Source: Nostoc sp. PCC 7120 = FACHB-418
GTDB lineage: Bacteria; Cyanobacteriota; Cyanobacteriia; Cyanobacteriales; Nostocaceae
Length of the DNA stretch: 32,000 nt
Assembly: GCF_000009705.1 (NCBI RefSeq)
Contig: NC_003272.1
Span: forward strand, 4,770,001-4,802,000
Reading direction: 5' to 3'
Below are positions 3,752 through 22,260 of the stretch, in pieces. Position numbers and translations under genes: made by a program. The notes under the pieces are model-generated. The model saw nothing but the letters and a program-made list of their open reading frames with translations. It did no database searches and was not told the DNA's origin. Positions within the stretch are counted from its first letter, which is position 1. Each line of letters starts with the position of its first letter.

Positions 3752-4138
3752 ATGGTGTTGTCGGTTAGTGAGCGGACATTTACTCAAGAAGTTTTAGAAT
3801 CTCCGGTTCCGGTTTTAGTAAATTTTGAAGCACCCTGGTGTGGATTGTGTCGCATTATCCACCCTTTGTTATTACAATTTCAATCTCAATGCGGCGAACA
3901 AATTAAACTAGTTGGGGTGAACGCTGACGAGAATTTCAAACTTTCTAACACTTATCGTTTAAAGTCTTTGCCCACGTTACTTTTGATTGAAAATGGAATC
4001 GTTCGCCATCGTCTAGAAGGGTTTCGCGGCAGAGATGACCTACGGTTAGCTTTAGAAGAAATCAAACTCAATTATACCAACCGTCCTAAAGCATACACTA
4101 GCTCTAAAACGGCAGACTTAGAATGTCGGACAGCGTGA
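3752..4138 (+). CDS. Thioredoxin with atypical WCGLC active site (cyanobacterial TrxC-like)
   Basis: Thioredoxin fold signature VLVNFEAPWCGLCRIIHP...LPTLLL. The active site is encoded at 3836-3850. I prefer the ATG at 3752 over the TTG at 3719 used by the ORF track, because it gives a canonical thioredoxin N-terminus. Confidence 0.8.
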   Translation: MVLSVSERTFTQEVLESPVPVLVNFEAPWCGLCRIIHPLLLQFQSQCGEQIKLVGVNADENFKLSNTYRLKSLPTLLLIENGIVRHRLEGFRGRDDLRLALEEIKLNYTNRPKAYTSSKTADLECRTA

Positions 4139-13822: not shown

Positions 13823-14680
13823 ATGTCAACCCCCGATCGACTTTTTGTTAGTTATCACCTCTGGTCTTTAGTTGCCCCAGCTGTGGGGCAAGAACGTTGG
13901 CATTGCCAGATGAGACGGGGGTTTATCAAAGCGCGTCAAAATGAACCACAAGTCAAAGCACTGCTAGGGAATGCTACTCCACCTCAGCGAATTGGGATAC
14001 TAGCCCAAAAAGGTGTTTATGAGTTTCATCATAATCGACATTTGTTAACCCGTTCTGATGGAGTCGAGCAAGTAGCACAGTTGTTGAAACTAAGTAACTC
14101 CACAATGCAAGTTCAACAACGGGTGCTGCAAATTCTGAAAAAATACTATAATGCACCGTTATTATTAGGTAAAAAGATTCTGCAATTAACTCGTGGTGAT
14201 GAAGGTTTTCCCAAACCAATTTTAATTGAACAGAAGGATGATCGTTTTCGTTTATATGCAGCGATGGATTGCGTTTTCATTGAGTCTGATGCTCACCATA
14301 CTTTGCATATTTTAGATTTTAAAACTGGTAAAGCTGCTTTTGACAAAAGACAAGCCTTAGTTTATTTATTAGCTGCTAACTACCTTTACCCAGGTAAAGA
14401 AGCTGTCGCCTCATTTTATAATCTAGAACTCTGCCAAGAATCAGAGTTGATTAGCCTTAAAAGAAATGAATTAGAAGATTTGAAAATTGAGTTAATAAAT
14501 ATAGCCAAAAAACACCAAGACGACGTACAGCAGTATCAGGAAGAAACTAGAGATTTCAGTGAGATATTTCCACCTAATCCTGGTTATCACTGTCGCTTTT
14601 GTCCATTTCAATCAATTTGTGATTTTTCAGTTCAAGCGTCTCAAGTTCAATCATTACCAATCATTAAAACCAATAGCTAA
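13823..14680 (+). CDS. PD-(D/E)XK nuclease-family protein with Cas4/AddB-like Cys cluster
   Basis: D in AAMDCVF, LDFKTGK (D/ExK), QALVYLL (QxxxY) and a C-terminal CRFCPFQSIC (Cx2Cx5C), plus an N-terminal Cys (HCQ). This arrangement is the Cas4/RecB-type nuclease with an Fe-S cluster. Confidence 0.7.
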   Translation: MSTPDRLFVSYHLWSLVAPAVGQERWHCQMRRGFIKARQNEPQVKALLGNATPPQRIGILAQKGVYEFHHNRHLLTRSDGVEQVAQLLKLSNSTMQVQQRVLQILKKYYNAPLLLGKKILQLTRGDEGFPKPILIEQKDDRFRLYAAMDCVFIESDAHHTLHILDFKTGKAAFDKRQALVYLLAANYLYPGKEAVASFYNLELCQESELISLKRNELEDLKIELINIAKKHQDDVQQYQEETRDFSEIFPPNPGYHCRFCPFQSICDFSVQASQVQSLPIIKTNS

Positions 14681-14715
14681 ATAGAAACTATTAATTAAAC
14701 TAATTTTTATAGTCT

Positions 14716-14740
14716 GTAGGGTGGGCAATGCCCACCCTAC
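14716..14740. terminator. Bidirectional intrinsic terminator between convergent genes
   Basis: GTAGGGTGGGC-AAT-GCCCACCCTAC is a perfect 11-bp GC-rich stem. It is flanked by TAATTTTTAT on both sides. Confidence 0.65.
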
Positions 14741-14823
14741 TAATTTTTATAATTTTATGAATAGTAATAGGTAATAGACAATTCATTTATTACCTATTAC
14801 CTATTACCTATCATCGTTAAATG

Positions 14824-15078
14824 TTACATCTTACCATGCTGCATAACTTCTTGCAGATGATGACGAATTTCTTGTGCTTGCTCAATCTCAGACTGACGAA
14901 GTTTTTGGAATAAATCTACACAAGGTTGAGAGTTAGCAGCTTGAGCATCTTCTATATAAGTTTCATAAGCTCTGACTGCTTCAGCCTTGTTTTGCAACAC
15001 AGTCAGAAAGTCATACTCTAAGTTGCTAATAGGTTCCTGAGAATGTCCATTACCTGTAGTCATTGATTCACACTCCAT
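14824..15078 (-). CDS. Small conserved hypothetical protein (helical, about 80 aa)
   Basis: ORF with plausible helical sequence (LEYDFLTVLQNKAEAVRAYETYIEDAQ...). The true start may be the MTTGNG ATG at 15063. I could not assign a family. Confidence 0.5.
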   Translation of the reverse strand: MECESMTTGNGHSQEPISNLEYDFLTVLQNKAEAVRAYETYIEDAQAANSQPCVDLFQKLRQSEIEQAQEIRHHLQEVMQHGKM

Positions 15079-15146
15079 AAGTTTATAATTAATTTCTACT
15101 TAACCGTACAGAGTCATTCATCCACCCAAAAGCGTAGAAAAAAGTA

Positions 15147-15174
15147 CATTGGTCATTGGTCAATAGTCCATAGT
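15147..15174. repeat. STRR-type heptamer array (CATTGGT CATTGGT CAATAGT CCATAGT)
   Basis: Four consecutive heptamers read directly. Short tandemly repeated repetitive (STRR) heptamers are a hallmark of heterocystous cyanobacteria. Confidence 0.8.
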
Positions 15175-15226
15175 AATTCTTCTTTACTTCCCTTGCTCCC
15201 TCTGCTTTCTTCAGTCTCCAGTTCGG

Positions 15227-16745: not shown

Positions 16746-17438
16746 CTAGCCAACAATAATTGTTTTCGTGGCAGATGGGCATAAATCCGCCAATTCGCAC
16801 GCCTCGCATACAGGAGAACGGGCTTTACAGACAGCGCGACCATGATAAATTAGCCGAATTGACCAATTTTCCCAATCTGGTTGCGGTAATAACTTCATTA
16901 AATCCTGTTCAATGTGAACGGGGTCTGGATATTTAGTTAAACCGAGGCGTTGACTGAGGCGCTTGACATGAGTATCTACTGTTACCCCTGCATTGATGCC
17001 ATAAGCATGGGCTAAAACCACATTTGCGGTCTTCCGCGCCACACCAGGGAGTTTTAACAACTGTTCCATTGTGTTGGGAACCGCAGAGTTAAACTCACTG
17101 ACAATCATGCGACAGGCGGCTTGAATATTTTTGGCTTTATTACGATAAAACCCTGTAGAGCGTACTAGGTTTTCTAACTCTGTTAAATCAGCATTCGCTA
17201 GACTAGGCGCATCAGGAAAGCGGCTAAATAAAGCTGGTGTAACTAGATTGACTCGCTCATCTGTACACTGGGCTGAGAGAATTGTTGCCACCAGCAATTG
17301 CACGGTTGTGGTGTAGTTTAAGGAGCAAGTGGCATCGGGATAAAGACGCTTCAGGCGAGAGAGAATTTCTAACGCCCGTTGCTTTTTAGAAAGGGATTTG
17401 CGGGTGGTAGTACTCACTGGAACAATTTTTGTACCCAC
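16746..17438 (-). CDS. nth: Endonuclease III (DNA-(apurinic or apyrimidinic site) lyase)
   Basis: The HhH-GPD core LPGVARKTANVVL and the C-terminal 4Fe-4S cluster CKARSPVCEACELADLC. The alternative GTG start at 17417 would give a 4-nt GTGA overlap with the rseP stop. Confidence 0.9.
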   Translation of the reverse strand: MGTKIVPVSTTTRKSLSKKQRALEILSRLKRLYPDATCSLNYTTTVQLLVATILSAQCTDERVNLVTPALFSRFPDAPSLANADLTELENLVRSTGFYRNKAKNIQAACRMIVSEFNSAVPNTMEQLLKLPGVARKTANVVLAHAYGINAGVTVDTHVKRLSQRLGLTKYPDPVHIEQDLMKLLPQPDWENWSIRLIYHGRAVCKARSPVCEACELADLCPSATKTIIVG

Positions 17439-18508
17439 TCCAATTGGGTAGTTAATTGGGTGGTTTCTTTCACAATCAGAAAAATTCCCAGCCCTAAGAG
17501 TAACACCAGACCAGTCTGCATTACACCTTCTTGAATGCGGTTAGGTAAGGGCTTACCGCGTAAACCTTCAATGAGTAAAAACGCTAATTGTCCACCGTCC
17601 AAAGCTGGGAGCGGCAGAATATTGATGACTGCTAAGTTGATGCTAATTAAAGCGGCAAAGAAGAACAAACTACCTGTATCGTTTTGGGCAATGTTAGCGC
17701 CAATTTCGACAATTTTGATGGGGCCTGCAACTTGGCTGGCTGTTTCCCCAAAGTTAGTAACTAGTTGCCCAAAGCCTTTAAATGTCATCACGACAATGCG
17801 TTGAAATTCGCTAGCGCCAACGCTAAAAGCTTTGCTGAGACTAACTGGACGGCGTTCTACTTTGCCGTTAGGTGCCAGACCAATACCGATACTTCCCCCG
17901 GCAGGTTTTGCTTCGGGAATAACATTAACCGATAGCCTTTCGTCTCCACGGGCAACTGTGAGTTGAATAGACTTACCAGGGCTATTTTTAATGATGTCTC
18001 TTAAAGCTTCTATTTCTTGTAGGGAAGTGCCAAATTCTTTTTGATTAGCAGAGAGAATTACATCTCCTGGTTTCAGTCCAGCGTTGGTAGCAACAGCACT
18101 CACTTCTGGTGCTAACTGTTGGATTGAAACCCCTGGCTGACTGGCTTGTCCAATACCAACAAAGCCCACCTGGGCTAATAGGAGCATATAAGCGAAAATT
18201 AAATTAGCGATGACACCTGCACTGATAACGATCGCCCGATCTAAAATGGGACGGTTACGCAGCAAATTTGGGTCATTGGGGGGAATATCGCTATCGGGGT
18301 CATCATCGGGAAAGCCGACAAATCCACCCAAAGGAAAAGCCCTGATAGCATACTCAGTTTCCGCACCTTGGTACTTCCACAGAACAGGCCCAAATCCTAA
18401 CGAAAAGCGGTTCACATGAATACCTTGAGAACGCGCTGCGACAAAATGCCCCAACTCGTGTACCAAGATTAATACCGCCAAGACTGCGATCGCTGCTAAA
18501 ACTGACAT
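17414..18508 (-). CDS. rseP: RIP metalloprotease RseP (site-2 protease, M50 family)
   Basis: The HELGHF zinc motif near the N-terminus, a central PDZ-like region, and a C-terminal NLAVINILPLPALDGG motif. Confidence 0.9.
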   Translation of the reverse strand: MSVLAAIAVLAVLILVHELGHFVAARSQGIHVNRFSLGFGPVLWKYQGAETEYAIRAFPLGGFVGFPDDDPDSDIPPNDPNLLRNRPILDRAIVISAGVIANLIFAYMLLLAQVGFVGIGQASQPGVSIQQLAPEVSAVATNAGLKPGDVILSANQKEFGTSLQEIEALRDIIKNSPGKSIQLTVARGDERLSVNVIPEAKPAGGSIGIGLAPNGKVERRPVSLSKAFSVGASEFQRIVVMTFKGFGQLVTNFGETASQVAGPIKIVEIGANIAQNDTGSLFFFAALISINLAVINILPLPALDGGQLAFLLIEGLRGKPLPNRIQEGVMQTGLVLLLGLGIFLIVKETTQLTTQLEWVQKLFQ

Positions 18509-18628
18509 AGAGCAAATTAATCAAATATATTCCGATATATATTTTTATTGTAGTAGTTTAGAAAACCGATGCTGAGACTCAAAGCATACTACAGTAGGAA
18601 ACTATGCCTAAGTTAGACTGAGCGCCCA

Positions 18629-19030
18629 CTACTTCATCAAATGAGTATCAAGTTCAGGATACTGAGAGAACAAACTATCAACACTGGCTAACTTTGCTTG
18701 ATATTCCAATGTAGTAGCAACAATCAGGCGGTCAAACGGATCTTTGTGAATAGGAGATAAATCTACAGCACGGCAGACAATTTCGGGAGTTAAGGGAAAT
18801 AATGTAATATCTGCTGGCTGCAAAGCTTCCTGAAACCATTGATTAGCGGCACAGGGTAACTGTAGCCTTCCTCGCTGCTGTGCCAGTGCAATTTCATAAC
18901 AAGAAATAACCGAAATGCCTACTTGTTCAGCCGTTTCGATAGCTTCTCTCCACTGAGTAGGAAATCTTTGAAATTCTTGATTAATCAACCAGAACCAAAT
19001 ATGAGTATCGAGGACTATTACTTCAGACAT
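18629..19030 (-). CDS. vapC: PIN-domain ribonuclease toxin (VapC-like)
   Basis: VLDTHIWFWL (first acidic residue), a later D in DPFDRLIVATT, a length of 133 aa, and a 13-nt overlap with the upstream small ORF. Confidence 0.75.
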   Translation of the reverse strand: MSEVIVLDTHIWFWLINQEFQRFPTQWREAIETAEQVGISVISCYEIALAQQRGRLQLPCAANQWFQEALQPADITLFPLTPEIVCRAVDLSPIHKDPFDRLIVATTLEYQAKLASVDSLFSQYPELDTHLMK

Positions 19031-19239
19031 TCCCAGTCTTCTTCATCAACTATAGGACTGACAATATCCCCTAATGTTTTACCTTTGCCTGCAATAGATT
19101 CAGGGGCAGTGCGGCGTTTCTTTGATGGTAAAGTTTCTTCTATAAAGGTAACAATGACACGGGCAGTATTAACTTGAGGCTGTTCTGATATCCACTTTAT
19201 TTGACCATTTTCATAAATCGCTTCGTAACTTTTTAACAT
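19018..19239 (-). CDS. Antitoxin of the VapC module (AF2212/DUF104-like)
   Basis: The N-terminus YEAIYENGQIKW resembles DUF104-type antitoxins. The acidic tail IVDEEDWE is common in cyanobacterial antitoxins. It overlaps the vapC start. Confidence 0.65.
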   Translation of the reverse strand: MLKSYEAIYENGQIKWISEQPQVNTARVIVTFIEETLPSKKRRTAPESIAGKGKTLGDIVSPIVDEEDWECLK

Positions 19240-19277
19240 GGCAATCAGGGTTTTATTAACCTTTGCGCTTTCTTAAA

Positions 19278-19451
19278 TTATAGTTTAGGCGATCGCTTAT
19301 ATAGGGTTTCCTGTACAGATGACCAGTCTGCTTCGGATAACAAAATTGCATTGCCACTTTTTCCTGCAATAACAATGGGTTTATGTGACTGATTCACGGA
19401 ATCAATTAAATCCTGTAACTGTTTTTGAGCTTCGTTAATTGGAATCATCAT
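19278..19451 (-). pseudogene. Truncated Phd/YefM-family antitoxin remnant (57 codons; absent from the supplied ORF track)
   Basis: My own translation of the minus strand is MMIPINEAQKQLQDLIDSVNQSHKPIVIAGKSGNAILLSEADWSSVQETLYKRSPKL*. Up to QETLY it matches the Phd/YefM N-terminal domain. The usual C-terminal toxin-binding half is missing and the sequence diverges at a HIP1 site (AAGCGATCGCC). Confidence 0.55.
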
Positions 19452-19623
19452 CCGTCAACATTACTATTAATCTCTACCATCTATTTTAAAATTTCATAAT
19501 CTAATTATTAAAGTACATTTCAGTTACTTCGCGGATGTTTTGTATAAATTCATAAATTGTTTATCTTTGGCTTAATTTTTTTCAGTCAAATGTGAAGATG
19601 CAGAGACTTGTTGGGTAGCGTTT

Positions 19624-20835
19624 TTAAAGTTGAGAAGGGTTGTGAGTTACTCTAGAAATATACTCTCCATTATAACTAAGAATTCTTAAAATAATTTGTA
19701 TCAGTAAGTCATAATATTTCTTGAATAAATCTATCTTTTCACTTAACGTTAATAGGGTAATTCTACCTTGATGAAATAGTGGATTGCGGACTGAATCTCG
19801 CAAATTATCTTTCATCATTTCGCTGGGAATAAAACGGAGATACTTATTTAATTGATATAATTTCTTTTGAATATTGTCTCCGATATTATCTTGAGTTAAT
19901 TCTTTATTCAATAAGTACTTGAATGTAATATACTCATAAGCCATGATCATTGTTGCCAGTTTAAGATCAATATATTTCTGTTGGTTTATTTCTGCTAAAA
20001 ATCCAATACAAGTATTGATGTCTATCTTTGGTTGCAAGACTTTGTAAATTTCATAACAATCATTAAATGCTTTTGGTATACCTCCATTAATACGAAAATT
20101 ATCAATGATATAATTTCTGCTAAAAGGATTCTTAACTGTATTTTCTATGGAATACTGCATAACTTCATTATCCGCATAATATTCAATCAACGGAGTGAAG
20201 TTTAAATTTAGATCAAGAAAACTTAAAAACCAACTTATCGATATAATTTCTTCTTTAATAGCATCAATATTTTCATATTTATTAATAGGAATGCTAACTT
20301 GAGAAAGAATTGCATTGTTTATTCTCTGAATATCAATTAGGTCAACAAGTTGCTTATTATTCTCCAGCATCTGAAAGCATAGTTCTTTCCCCTTAATCTT
20401 AACAAAGAATCCTCGCTCGCAATCAAGCGGAGAAAAGATGAAATTACTGAAATAAGCTTTTGCTAGAGTTAAATGCTTAGTTTCTTGCTCTTTTTTCTTT
20501 AAAAAAATGTAATCTGGAAGATAGAACGAAGTTAGTCTGTTAGGTAGTTCTCCTGTCTGAGCTAGAAAATGAAGATTGGTACATTCAATCTCCCATATTT
20601 CATCATTAGATATCCCAGAAAAAGACTGAATTTGAGATCCATTTTCTAAATTCTGAAGAGGTTCTTTTCCATGTAATACGAAAATGATATTTCCAGAAGC
20701 ATCTATACATAGCTCCCAAAAATACTTTGTATTTTGATCAGATTTACCTTCACCACATTTATACGGTATTCTTGAGTATTGATAAATATCGCCTAGTCTA
20801 TTTGCAAAGTAATCTTGTTTAAGCATAATCCGCAT
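19624..20835 (-). CDS. Orphan 403-aa protein with C-terminal R-N-P-L-F-H (HEPN-type Rx4H) motif; candidate HEPN RNase
   Basis: Long uninterrupted ORF in strikingly AT-rich DNA. R350-N-P-L-F-H355 is encoded at 19771-19788 (verified: cgc aat cca cta ttt cat on the minus strand). I recognise no other motif. Confidence 0.55.
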   Translation of the reverse strand: MRIMLKQDYFANRLGDIYQYSRIPYKCGEGKSDQNTKYFWELCIDASGNIIFVLHGKEPLQNLENGSQIQSFSGISNDEIWEIECTNLHFLAQTGELPNRLTSFYLPDYIFLKKKEQETKHLTLAKAYFSNFIFSPLDCERGFFVKIKGKELCFQMLENNKQLVDLIDIQRINNAILSQVSIPINKYENIDAIKEEIISISWFLSFLDLNLNFTPLIEYYADNEVMQYSIENTVKNPFSRNYIIDNFRINGGIPKAFNDCYEIYKVLQPKIDINTCIGFLAEINQQKYIDLKLATMIMAYEYITFKYLLNKELTQDNIGDNIQKKLYQLNKYLRFIPSEMMKDNLRDSVRNPLFHQGRITLLTLSEKIDLFKKYYDLLIQIILRILSYNGEYISRVTHNPSQL

Positions 20836-20883
20836 TTAATGATGGCTGGGAATTATAACTGTATACGGTTGTAATGTATCAAT

Positions 20884-20925
20884 ATCTCCATATAACCACT
20901 CTTAGAGAAGTGATTATATGGAGAT
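20884..20925. promoter_or_regulatory. 17-bp inverted repeat between the serS stop and the start of the 403-aa ORF
   Basis: ATCTCCATATAACCACT (20884-20900), an 8-nt loop, then AGTGATTATATGGAGAT (20909-20925). 16 of 17 positions pair. No U-tract follows on either strand. Confidence 0.5.
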
Positions 20926-20979
20926 TCTTCGTAAGAAATTATGCCAAATCTGAAAACTTGAGAGTGCTTTGTATCAGTC

Positions 20980-22260
20980 TTACAACACTTCACGCCCTAA
21001 GAAAGGTTGCAATACTTCCGGTATCAAAATTGTCCCATCTGGTTGCTGATAATTTTCCAAAATAGCTGCCATTGTGCGCCCTACAGCCAAGCCAGAACCG
21101 TTGAGGGTATGGACAAACTGTGTACCTTTCTTACCTGCTTCCTTAAAGCGAATATCGGCTCGCCGCGCTTGGAAATCAAAACAATTAGAACAACTGGAAA
21201 TTTCCCGATATTTACCAGAAGATGGTAGCCATACTTCTAAATCATAGGTTTTCGTTGCCCCAAAACCTAAATCACCAGTACAAAGATTAATCACCCGGTA
21301 AGGTAATTTTAAAGCCTGTAAAATTGCTTCGGCATTCCCCACCAATTTTTCTAATTCATCAAAAGAAGTGCTGGGATGAACGACTTTTACCAACTCTACT
21401 TTATTGAATTGATGCAGGCGAATTAAACCCCGCATATCTCGTCCATAACTTCCTGCTTCCCGACGAAAACAGGGAGTATAAGCACAGTGATAAATGGGTA
21501 AATTTTCCGCCGCCAGGATTTCTCCGCGATAAAGGTTAGTAACAGGAACTTCTGCTGTGGGAATTAACCACAATTCATCATCAGCACACTTAAAGCTTTC
21601 TTCTGCAAACTTCGGTAATTGACCTGTTCCTGTTAAAGAATCGGTATTGACTAACAAGGGTGGACTAACTTCTATATAGCCAGCTGCGGTTTGCATCTTC
21701 AGCATAAAGTTAATTAACGCCCGCTCCAACGCTGCACCAGCGCCTATCAAGTTCACAAAGCGACTTTGGGCAACTTTGACAGCACGTTCAAAATTGAGAA
21801 TCCCCAGCTTTTCGCCGATTTCCCAATGGGGGATAATATTCGGATTCTGGGGTAGATATTCATCACCCCAAAGTCTTACCTCTACATTTTCTTCCTCACC
21901 TTTACCTATAGGTGTAGAGTCACTGGGTAAATTAGGGAGTGCGAGTATAAGTTGCTCAATTTCCGCTTTGAGTTCTTTTTCTCTTGGTTCTAGTTCACTC
22001 AATTGGGCTTTAATCGCGTTCCCCTCATCCCGCAAAGCTTGAATTTCTGGGTCTTGAGGATTAATACCCGATTTAATCTTCTGTCCGACAATTTTACCAA
22101 TTTCGTTACTCCGGGCTTGGATTTGACTGCGGGTCGCTTCCAACTCCCGTTGTTGCTTATCTAACTGTAATATGGGTTGAATGTCATAAGTACCATTGCG
22201 GCTATTCAACCGTTCCTGAATGAGTTGGGGATTTTCCCTTATTTGCTTAATATCCAGCAC
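20980..22260 (-). CDS. serS: Seryl-tRNA synthetase
   Basis: [18 protein letters not shown]..., an N-terminal coiled-coil arm, and class II motifs ([18 protein letters not shown]). It is 426 aa long. Confidence 0.95.

Follow-up and report, generated by a model that had tools for sequence, protein, structure and literature searches.

A horizontally mobile gene of Nostoc sp. PCC 7120 for a predicted HEPN protein with a β-rich N-terminal domain, a candidate stand-alone defence RNase

Introduction

ApeA, a defence system of Gao et al. 2020 with Ec1ApeA and Ec2ApeA as the characterised forms, is in its tested versions a mainly α-helical protein of about 580 amino acids (aa) whose N-terminal and Mid domains are joined to a split HEPN domain that carries insertions; it forms decameric or dodecameric rings, cuts the anticodon loops of tRNA or the genomes of single-stranded RNA phages and is activated via a pocket that lies between its N-terminal domain and its HEPN domain (bioRxiv 10.64898/2026.01.26.701840; 10.64898/2026.03.20.713152). 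The closest structure that its authors found for HEPN_ApeA was HepT, 5YEP/7AE8 (bioRxiv 10.64898/2026.01.26.701840). A computationally defined group, here called ApeA-NTD1 + HEPN, has a domain of about 300 aa, described as 'mostly beta strands' and carrying several conserved aromatic residues, fused to an ApeA-type HEPN domain (Pfam PF18862 and PF18739); its prototype is PCC7424_5050 of Cyanothece sp. PCC 7424 (Anantharaman et al. 2013, PMC3710099). The classic HEPN signature, R-[N]-x3-H, precedes the last long helix and lies about 50 residues from the C-terminus (PMC3710099). We describe here an open reading frame (ORF) of 403 codons in a stretch of 32,000 nucleotides of the Nostoc sp. PCC 7120 chromosome (NC_003272.1, positions 4,770,001 to 4,802,000; hereafter the window, to which coordinates refer unless a related locus is named). 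The ORF lies between serS and rseP, and its product is BAB75674.1 (100% identity). An earlier note, made from the letters of this DNA, had read it as a candidate for a horizontally acquired single-gene defence or abortive-infection RNase; its observations are confirmed below and its interpretation is supported, with the qualifications given there. From the analysis below we consider it probable that the ORF encodes a stand-alone two-domain conflict protein, in which a β-rich sensor is joined to a trigger-activated HEPN RNase, most likely for defence or abortive infection. The RNase, toxicity and phage-defence roles are carried over from HEPN enzymes (PMC3710099) and from ApeA (bioRxiv 10.64898/2026.01.26.701840; 10.64898/2026.03.20.713152).

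Results and Discussion

Conservation of the RNxxxH motif

The ORF contains RNPLFH at residues 350–355, as the earlier note had described, 48 residues from the C-terminus where some 50 had been estimated. The motif by itself is weak evidence and not beyond chance. In 20,000 shuffles of the ORF protein Rx4H arose in 16%, Rx4-6H in 41% and RNx3H in 1.4%, so the caution in the same note that six residues can match by accident was justified for the motif taken alone. A word-indexed search brought up 37 homologues, from Nostocales, Crinalium and Paenibacillaceae; an exhaustive search with a profile raised this to 333 representatives at 50% identity (E ≤1e-3), 173 of them at E ≤1e-10. RNxxxH stands at the equivalent place in 85 of the 87 full-length representatives at 50% identity, and it is retained in Bacillota and in the copy on a phage-plasmid. 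R350, N351, F354, H355 and G357 are invariant in 23 sequences reaching down to 31% identity. In a wider alignment of 73 sequences, which diverge to about 15% identity, no column of the entire protein except R350 and H355 remains invariant; N351, G357, E301, G74, N131 and G390 are conserved to at least 90%. That these two residues alone are invariant at such distance is the pattern expected of catalytic residues, and their invariance among homologues, which the earlier note had named as a check, was found in both alignments. On the conservation across the 73 sequences we rejected chance as the explanation of the motif. E301 (E57 in the domain alignment), an acidic residue in the helix 289–310, is by its conservation in the divergent family a candidate for an additional active-site or structural residue, a role suggested by the alignment.

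Repeating the word-indexed search with a profile of the 73 sequences gave three further proteins. The same kind of search started from P0177, a divergent family member, retrieved P0177 alone and opened no path to Pfam-annotated ApeA proteins.

The C-terminal domain

The AlphaFold2 (AF2) model built with the family alignment has a predicted local distance difference test score (pLDDT) of 88.3 and a predicted template modelling (TM) score of 0.88. In it the C-terminal domain is a helical bundle; a separate model of residues 241–403 gave a pLDDT of 82.9. In the models the motif lies just ahead of the long helix 364–385. A fold search of the PDB with residues 241–403 placed HEPN proteins at ranks 1 and 2 (7bxo_H, a HepT toxin, and 2hsb), with the HEPN entries 8xdj, 1jog, 5yep and 3o10 lower; HEPN proteins account for 6 of the first 39 matches. 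We regard this ranking of a predicted model as supportive, short of proof.

Sequence profiles point the same way. When 73 family members were scanned singly against Pfam, HEPN_Apea matched four and HEPN_RiboL-PSP three, and these two alone, among the 25 Pfam families listed, recur in more than one member; DUF3644, HEPN_MAE_28990 and ApeA_NTD1 matched one member each. The HEPN matches of the relatives land on the motif region. P0177, which matches the ORF family profile with an E-value of 1.2e-12, is covered over residues 291–426 by four HEPN models (E 2e-4 to 1e-3, best 2.2e-4), with its motif at 389. One relative matches the Cas13-ApeA model of PADLOC (E 9.6e-6). Because the Rx4H is invariant, the domain helical, the fold ranking HEPN-first and the recurrent profile signals HEPN only, the C-terminal domain is very likely a HEPN domain.

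P0177 also bears a precomputed Pfam label, PF26308.1, a family that the local Pfam scan did not give. PF26308.1 may be a recent Pfam family covering the group of the ORF.

Several observations weigh against the assignment and against the reading of the ORF as a HEPN RNase of conflict. The fold matches of the C-terminal domain are non-significant (E ≥0.33, TM scores 0.4–0.5 and at most 0.50 when normalised to the target), and helical bundles attract spurious fold matches. The ORF itself is not recognised by Pfam, NCBIfam or PADLOC. The HEPN matches of its relatives score 16–22 bits, below the curated cut-offs of 24–28. Sequence and profile searches of the PDB with the ORF and with the 23-sequence profile found nothing, and the C-terminal domain, searched as a profile of 35 sequences, brought four non-HEPN matches (E 0.2–0.9). 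The stretch 346–356, which holds the motif loop, is the sole low-confidence part of the monomer model (pLDDT <50); such a loop would fit a site that is completed upon dimerisation. What the earlier note had expected of this domain was found, at sub-threshold strength. The C-terminus is helical with HEPN proteins as its two top fold matches, none of them significant, and divergent relatives match the HEPN_Apea and MAE_28990-like models that the note had named as well as RiboL-PSP-HEPN and DUF3644, all below threshold and none on the ORF.

The same shortfalls (non-significant fold E-values, no profile at its curated threshold, a motif in a low-confidence loop, a lone Rx4H in about one shuffle in six) are what one would cite for a different view, in which the bundle has an unrelated fold and the arginine and histidine of RNxxxH bind a ligand or metal or serve some other catalysis. 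This view has to account for the fact that HEPN families alone recur among the Pfam families listed, that four independent HEPN models fall on one region of P0177, that the top PDB folds are HEPN with six such entries among the first 39, and that an R-[N]-x3-H whose arginine is followed by a polar residue, placed before the last long helix of a small helical domain, is the classic HEPN signature (PMC3710099). The source name of the protein in UniProt-derived records likewise ties it to ApeA-type HEPN proteins. We consider a non-HEPN domain quite improbable.

Some distant relatives depart from the architecture of the ORF. P0155 has an N-terminal Xre-type helix–turn–helix (HTH) domain (HTH_3, E 1.9e-11), and unexplained extensions are seen in P0141 (673 aa) and P0151 (612 aa). 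Positions from about 17 to 49 of the profile are matched by 25 distinct stretches of P0149 (2865 aa); a short segment near the N-terminus of the family thus resembles the repeat unit of a giant repeat protein.

The N-terminal domain and comparison with known HEPN systems

The N-terminal domain is predicted with high confidence as two β subdomains, at about residues 23–130 and 142–231, and is presumed to be a sensor or regulatory domain of the ApeA-NTD1-like kind. The earlier note had recognised nothing in the first 300 or so residues. This holds in that no confident structural relative was found, and does not hold in that an architecture of the ApeA-NTD1 type had been described in silico in 2013. 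Foldseek with the whole protein against the PDB gave weak matches of the N-terminal half to Hcp-like β-barrels (E ≥3e-3, TM scores 0.36–0.46); the resemblance is faint and was not taken as a fold assignment. The viral structure library BFVD held no match for the model. The Pfam scan of the ORF reported only DUF7833 and Adeno_E3_15_3, both weak and in the N-terminal half. The DUF7833 match covers residues 76–133 (about 20437–20610) in the first β subdomain, at E 0.0024 and 18.3 bits against a cut-off of 24.3; since the ORF is the sole family member to show any such match, it is probably due to chance. The NCBIfam scan of the ORF gave one chance-level match, to RpoD (E 0.14).

Of the described architectures, ApeA-NTD1 + HEPN resembles the ORF in having a β-rich N-terminal domain (about 245 aa in the ORF) fused to a predicted HEPN domain in cyanobacteria. 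Invariant aromatic residues are a further likeness, being Y25, W40, W81, F134 and F154 in 23 sequences of the ORF family. The ORF and two Paenibacillus relatives are moreover called 'ApeA N-terminal domain-containing protein' in UniRef/UniProt-derived sources, which is a source name. The difference lies in the profile, as PF18862 does not match the ORF (E ≤10) and matches one of 73 relatives at E 0.045. Given this near-absence of ApeA_NTD1 matches the family is at best a divergent branch of the ApeA-NTD1 + HEPN group, and the ORF is best placed within or beside it.

With ApeA as tested in Escherichia coli the ORF shares a single polypeptide, a C-terminal predicted HEPN domain with Rx4H and an N-terminal region without enzymatic signature, which would be the sensor. 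HEPN_Apea is also the Pfam HEPN model that matches most members of the ORF family, and HepT is the nearest solved fold for both. Unlike ApeA, the ORF has 403 aa, a β-rich N-terminal half, no Mid domain and, in the AF2 model, a compact HEPN domain of about 150 aa. HEPN_Apea does not match the ORF, and the best relative reaches 20.0 bits against a cut-off of 24.4. PADLOC, whose library covers ApeA, matched none of its families to the ORF at E ≤10 and left 72 of 73 relatives unrecognised; the check for a known defence system that the earlier note had proposed thus came out negative. We ruled out that the ORF is ApeA in the tested form, as it has no PADLOC match, a different N-terminal fold and 403 against about 580 aa.

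HepT (7bxo, 5yep, 8xdj) and minimal HEPN proteins (2hsb, 1jog) have in common with the ORF the Rx4H and a small helical bundle, and are the best-ranked, though non-significant, fold matches. HepT, however, is a single-domain toxin of about 130 aa that is neutralised by a separate MNT antitoxin through AMPylation, whereas the HEPN domain of the ORF is fused to a large N-terminal domain and no MNT gene lies at its locus or at the related loci. Single-gene HEPN abortive-infection (Abi) proteins (RiboL-PSP-HEPN, MAE_28990/MAE_18760-like, EC042_2821/DUF3644 and AbiD/F-type) also combine a variable N-terminal domain with a C-terminal HEPN domain carrying RN-x3-H, and occur in mobile or defence islets. 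Their N-terminal domains are unrelated to that of the ORF, and none of their profiles reaches threshold in the family or matches the ORF itself.

Genomic distribution and horizontal transfer

The gene occurs in at least eight insertion contexts, and two hotspots lie inside one syntenic block of the Nostocales. In Nodularia (L001) it occupies the same gap between serS and rseP, followed by hicBA instead of vapBC. In Desmonostoc muscorum (L002) the end of serS at 3926 and the start of rseP at 4037 are only about 110 bp apart, and this gap lacks the gene. The gene is found some 4 kb off in that genome, flanked by aat and a DUF3598 gene and followed by a hicB-like gene and by hicBA genes. Two Nostoc metagenome-assembled genomes (MAGs) likewise have it at the aat–DUF3598 site and lack it in the serS–rseP gap. 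The aat–DUF3598 gap of the window (14681–15226) holds no remnant of a second copy. In Nostoc 210A the gene has a divergent mazEF pair on one side and a phytochrome gene on the other; in Crinalium its two neighbours are an amylase gene and a mazEF pair in convergent orientation. The Paenibacillus and Cohnella loci have no toxin–antitoxin neighbour; two of them adjoin a replication-type gene (HTH_36/DnaD_N). A copy with 33% identity and RNPLFH is carried by the 203-kb Clostridium botulinum plasmid p1 (NZ_CP063966.1, PLSDB), which is a phage-plasmid, as it is identical to a viral contig of IMG/VR. A scan of 185,579 species genomes returned only 15 loci, a number that undercounts the family because the scan used a single narrow peptide pattern taken from the closer alignment.

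At the clostridial locus (L022, identical to L023; p1 47136–64374) the homologue lies in a long run of small genes on the same strand. Genes close by include those for a DNA methyltransferase and a guanylate kinase, for a DUF4365 and an HD-domain protein, for a HicB antitoxin and for an RNA 2'-phosphotransferase. The phosphotransferase is an RNA-repair-type enzyme and worth noting beside a putative RNase.

The gene is decayed in 4 of 18 related loci examined: it is disrupted in one (L008:8001–9203), truncated in another (L009:1120–2484) and reduced to C-terminal fragments in two (L019:7959–8474 and L020:7941–8249). The sites are otherwise conserved, and the gene has been lost in place repeatedly. 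The decayed copies belong to four Nostocaceae MAGs, three of Nostoc and one of Dolichospermum; in L020 the flanking mazEF pair is lost too.

The composition of the gene is foreign to its surroundings. The G+C content (GC) of the ORF is 0.295, with 0.243 at third codon positions (GC3), against 0.427 for serS, 0.458 for rseP and 0.417 for the whole window, which confirms the estimate by eye in the earlier note (about 30% against the low 40s). In 11 of 11 hosts tested the gene lies 5–20 points below its flanks. Between PCC 7120 and Nodularia it is 74% identical where the neighbours are 83–89% identical. The ratio of nonsynonymous to synonymous divergence (dN/dS) against orthologues is 0.17–0.38, compared with 0.07 for serS; the ORF is therefore a genuine coding gene under purifying selection, and less constrained than serS. 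Synonymous divergence (dS) for the same pair of genomes is 0.38 for the gene (L001:8001–9221) and 0.92 for serS (L001:6557–7837). The low value for the gene may reflect a more recent exchange between lineages, or be an artefact of AT-biased third positions (GC3 0.24).

Overall, the gene is a horizontally mobile accessory gene, and its variable site, low GC, decay and fast divergence are typical of defence or conflict genes. The patchy distribution, the decayed copies, the adjacency of serS and rseP in Desmonostoc and the low GC throughout the family bear out the claim that it is horizontally acquired and not fixed at this locus. They also bear on the idea that the ORF is a housekeeping or regulatory protein of the host, which would process or bind RNA in functional connection with serS. 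In PCC 7120 and Nodularia the gene does follow serS directly, on the same strand, and core RNA-processing or non-catalytic roles are known for some HEPN proteins (Las1, Swt1, MtlR; PMC3710099). Against this idea stand the absence of the gene from the serS–rseP gap in Desmonostoc and the two Nostoc MAGs, its patchy distribution, repeated pseudogenisation, foreign composition in every host tested, faster evolution than its neighbours and unrelated contexts in Bacillota and on the phage-plasmid; the strict retention of the predicted catalytic arginine and histidine argues against a non-catalytic binder. We give a host function hardly any weight and rejected the housekeeping explanation on distribution, composition and decay.

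Toxin–antitoxin neighbours

An all-against-all comparison of the neighbours found none that is conserved across contexts. The product is therefore a stand-alone protein, in agreement with the single-gene claim of the earlier note, and an obligate two-gene system was rejected on the same comparison, which gave no conserved partner gene. At about 7 of 11 cyanobacterial loci the gene adjoins a type II toxin–antitoxin module, whose family, side and orientation vary from locus to locus. The families are hicBA in L001 and L002, mazEF in L003, L005 and L019, DUF5615/PIN_10 in L008 (9842–10180) and vapBC in the window. The mazEF pairs of Nostoc 210A and Crinalium, 45–53% identical, have diverged to roughly the same extent as the adjacent HEPN genes (52% identical), even though they occupy different genomic sites; shared insertion hotspots or loose co-transfer may lie behind this.

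Such neighbours invite the alternative that the ORF is itself the toxin of an addiction or stress module, held in check either by its own N-terminal domain or by a small antitoxin-like neighbour, which would be the 57-aa YefM fragment in PCC 7120 and a HicB-like protein at other loci, and that it stabilises the islet or arrests growth. HEPN domains are common toxins, for example in HEPN-MNT/HepT (PMC3710099), and toxins of this kind are the top fold matches of the C-terminal domain. In each of PCC 7120, Nodularia and Desmonostoc the next gene downstream, on the same strand, is a small one of an antitoxin family, and Desmonostoc has an additional HicB-like ORF beside a complete hicBA pair. No such neighbour is conserved across the insertion contexts, however, and an MNT gene is found neither at the ORF nor at related loci. 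The adjoining families differ (VapBC, HicBA, MazEF, DUF5615), as do side and orientation; several loci, including all those of Paenibacillaceae, have no toxin–antitoxin neighbour, and the downstream HicB of Nodularia is already paired with its own HicA. A length of 400 aa with a large N-terminal domain is also atypical of a type II toxin. We regard a toxin module as unlikely.

Proposed mechanism

For the reading that we favour, a sensor-controlled HEPN RNase of conflict, a mechanism can be proposed by analogy. Two copies would pair through their HEPN domains, so that the arginines and histidines of the two chains together make up a single metal-independent endoribonuclease site. Until it binds an infection signal, perhaps a component of the phage or a small nucleic-acid product, the N-terminal domain would keep the enzyme silent. 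Once activated, the enzyme would cut RNA, be it host tRNA, other host RNA or the RNA of the invader directly. Cleavage of host RNA would lead to growth arrest or abortive infection, and cleavage of either host or invader RNA would limit the spread of the phage or mobile element.

To the points set against this reading above, those on its defence side have to be added. The argument for a defence role is one of association. No homologue was found among 50,697 GenBank phage records. Toxin–antitoxin pairs are very common in Nostocales genomes, which weakens the argument from adjacency.

The family could, in addition, be a distinct and so far uncatalogued single-gene anti-phage system, with a new β-rich sensor, faintly reminiscent of Hcp or tail-tube proteins, for a phage structural protein or a nucleic-acid product, which would switch on a compact HEPN RNase by a mechanism that differs from the ring and pocket of ApeA. 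We put this forward tentatively, as a possibility that we would not yet bet on, for the 333 representatives at 50% identity in cyanobacteria, Bacillota and the clostridial phage-plasmid. It would be directly testable in PCC 7120, which is genetically tractable, and few cyanobacterial defence systems have been studied experimentally.

The combination of HEPN and a variable sensor as an Abi or defence concept is already known, as are the architecture, from the in silico description of 2013, and the ApeA-related name in UniProt-derived sources. New are a family missing from PADLOC and a sensor domain that has no confident structural relative. As the underlying idea is well established, the gain is incremental and not conceptual. 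If the proposal is correct, Nostoc (Anabaena) sp. PCC 7120 harbours a one-gene RNase immunity or suicide module that PADLOC (v2.0, 2023) does not detect, and a second, β-rich and compact sensor architecture exists among ApeA-like HEPN effectors, whose mechanism was worked out only in 2026 and for the α-helical forms of E. coli. The protein would then offer a tractable system for how HEPN RNases stay silent and are switched on.

The locus in PCC 7120

The features of the locus are collected in Table 1. The order on the minus strand is serS, the ORF, a 57-aa Phd/YefM fragment, a 73-aa ORF that overlaps a PIN toxin gene, and rseP. The start of the gene is probably the ATG at 20826 (residue M4), which would yield 400 aa, because the homologues and a 400-aa database version (P0180) start at the residue aligned with M4; M4 is conserved to at least 90% among the homologues. 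The neighbours between rseP and serS are those that the earlier note had described, vapBC and a decayed yefM, with the VapB label of the 73-aa ORF given by position only, as this ORF has no Pfam match.

Table 1. Features of the islet and its surroundings in the window
Feature	Position	Strand	Remarks
Gene, 403-aa ORF including stop codon	19624–20835	−	ATG start, sequence reading
N-terminal β-rich domain (predicted), residues 1–245	20101–20835	−	AF2 pLDDT mostly >90; strands across 23–231
C-terminal helical domain, residues 246–403, HEPN-assigned	19627–20100	−	predicted helices 252–271, 273–285, 289–310, 322–333, 364–385
RNPLFH, R350–H355 (predicted catalytic HEPN Rx4H), followed by G357	19771–19788	−	48 residues from C-terminus
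E301 codon	19933–19935	−	acidic; ≥90% conserved in divergent family; helix 289–310
Phd/YefM antitoxin fragment, 57 aa	19278–19451	−	directly downstream; PF02604 E 1.7e-9, profile positions 4–53 of 74
vapBC-like pair	18629–19239	−	PIN toxin 18629–19030 (E 7.8e-13) and overlapping 73-aa ORF 19018–19239
rseP, M50 protease	17414–18508
serS	20980–22260
Accessory islet between rseP and serS, 2.47 kb	18509–20979		GC trough; gap of about 110 bp in Desmonostoc muscorum

The Phd/YefM-like ORF retains only the N-terminal part of the antitoxin fold. There is no space for a cognate toxin, because the vapB-like ORF begins 38 bp past its stop. The fragment is either the rest of a decayed yefM–yoeB module that was cut by the insertion of vapBC, or an orphan DNA-binding remnant. 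It is not conserved beside the homologues, and we treat it as context. The vapBC-like pair, likewise context, completes the islet. The locus illustrates how tiny conflict islets, made of one defence gene and interchangeable toxin–antitoxin pairs, settle in particular gaps between housekeeping genes of the Nostocales. A scan for promoters and terminators around the gene did no better than on shuffled sequence, and a literature search with the accession BAB75674 and guessed PCC 7120 locus tags found no mention of it.

The AT-rich gap 14681–15226 of the window corresponds to the second insertion hotspot in other Nostocales. Read by eye, it shows TTACCTA heptamers in tandem, a minus-strand reading frame that is not annotated and a GC-rich hairpin with perfect pairing, GTAGGGTGGGCAATGCCCACCCTAC. 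It is preceded by a 285-aa ORF on the plus strand (13823–14680), which ends in a CxxCxxxxxC cluster; the syntenic ORF of L002 has a PD-(D/E)XK domain (PF12705).

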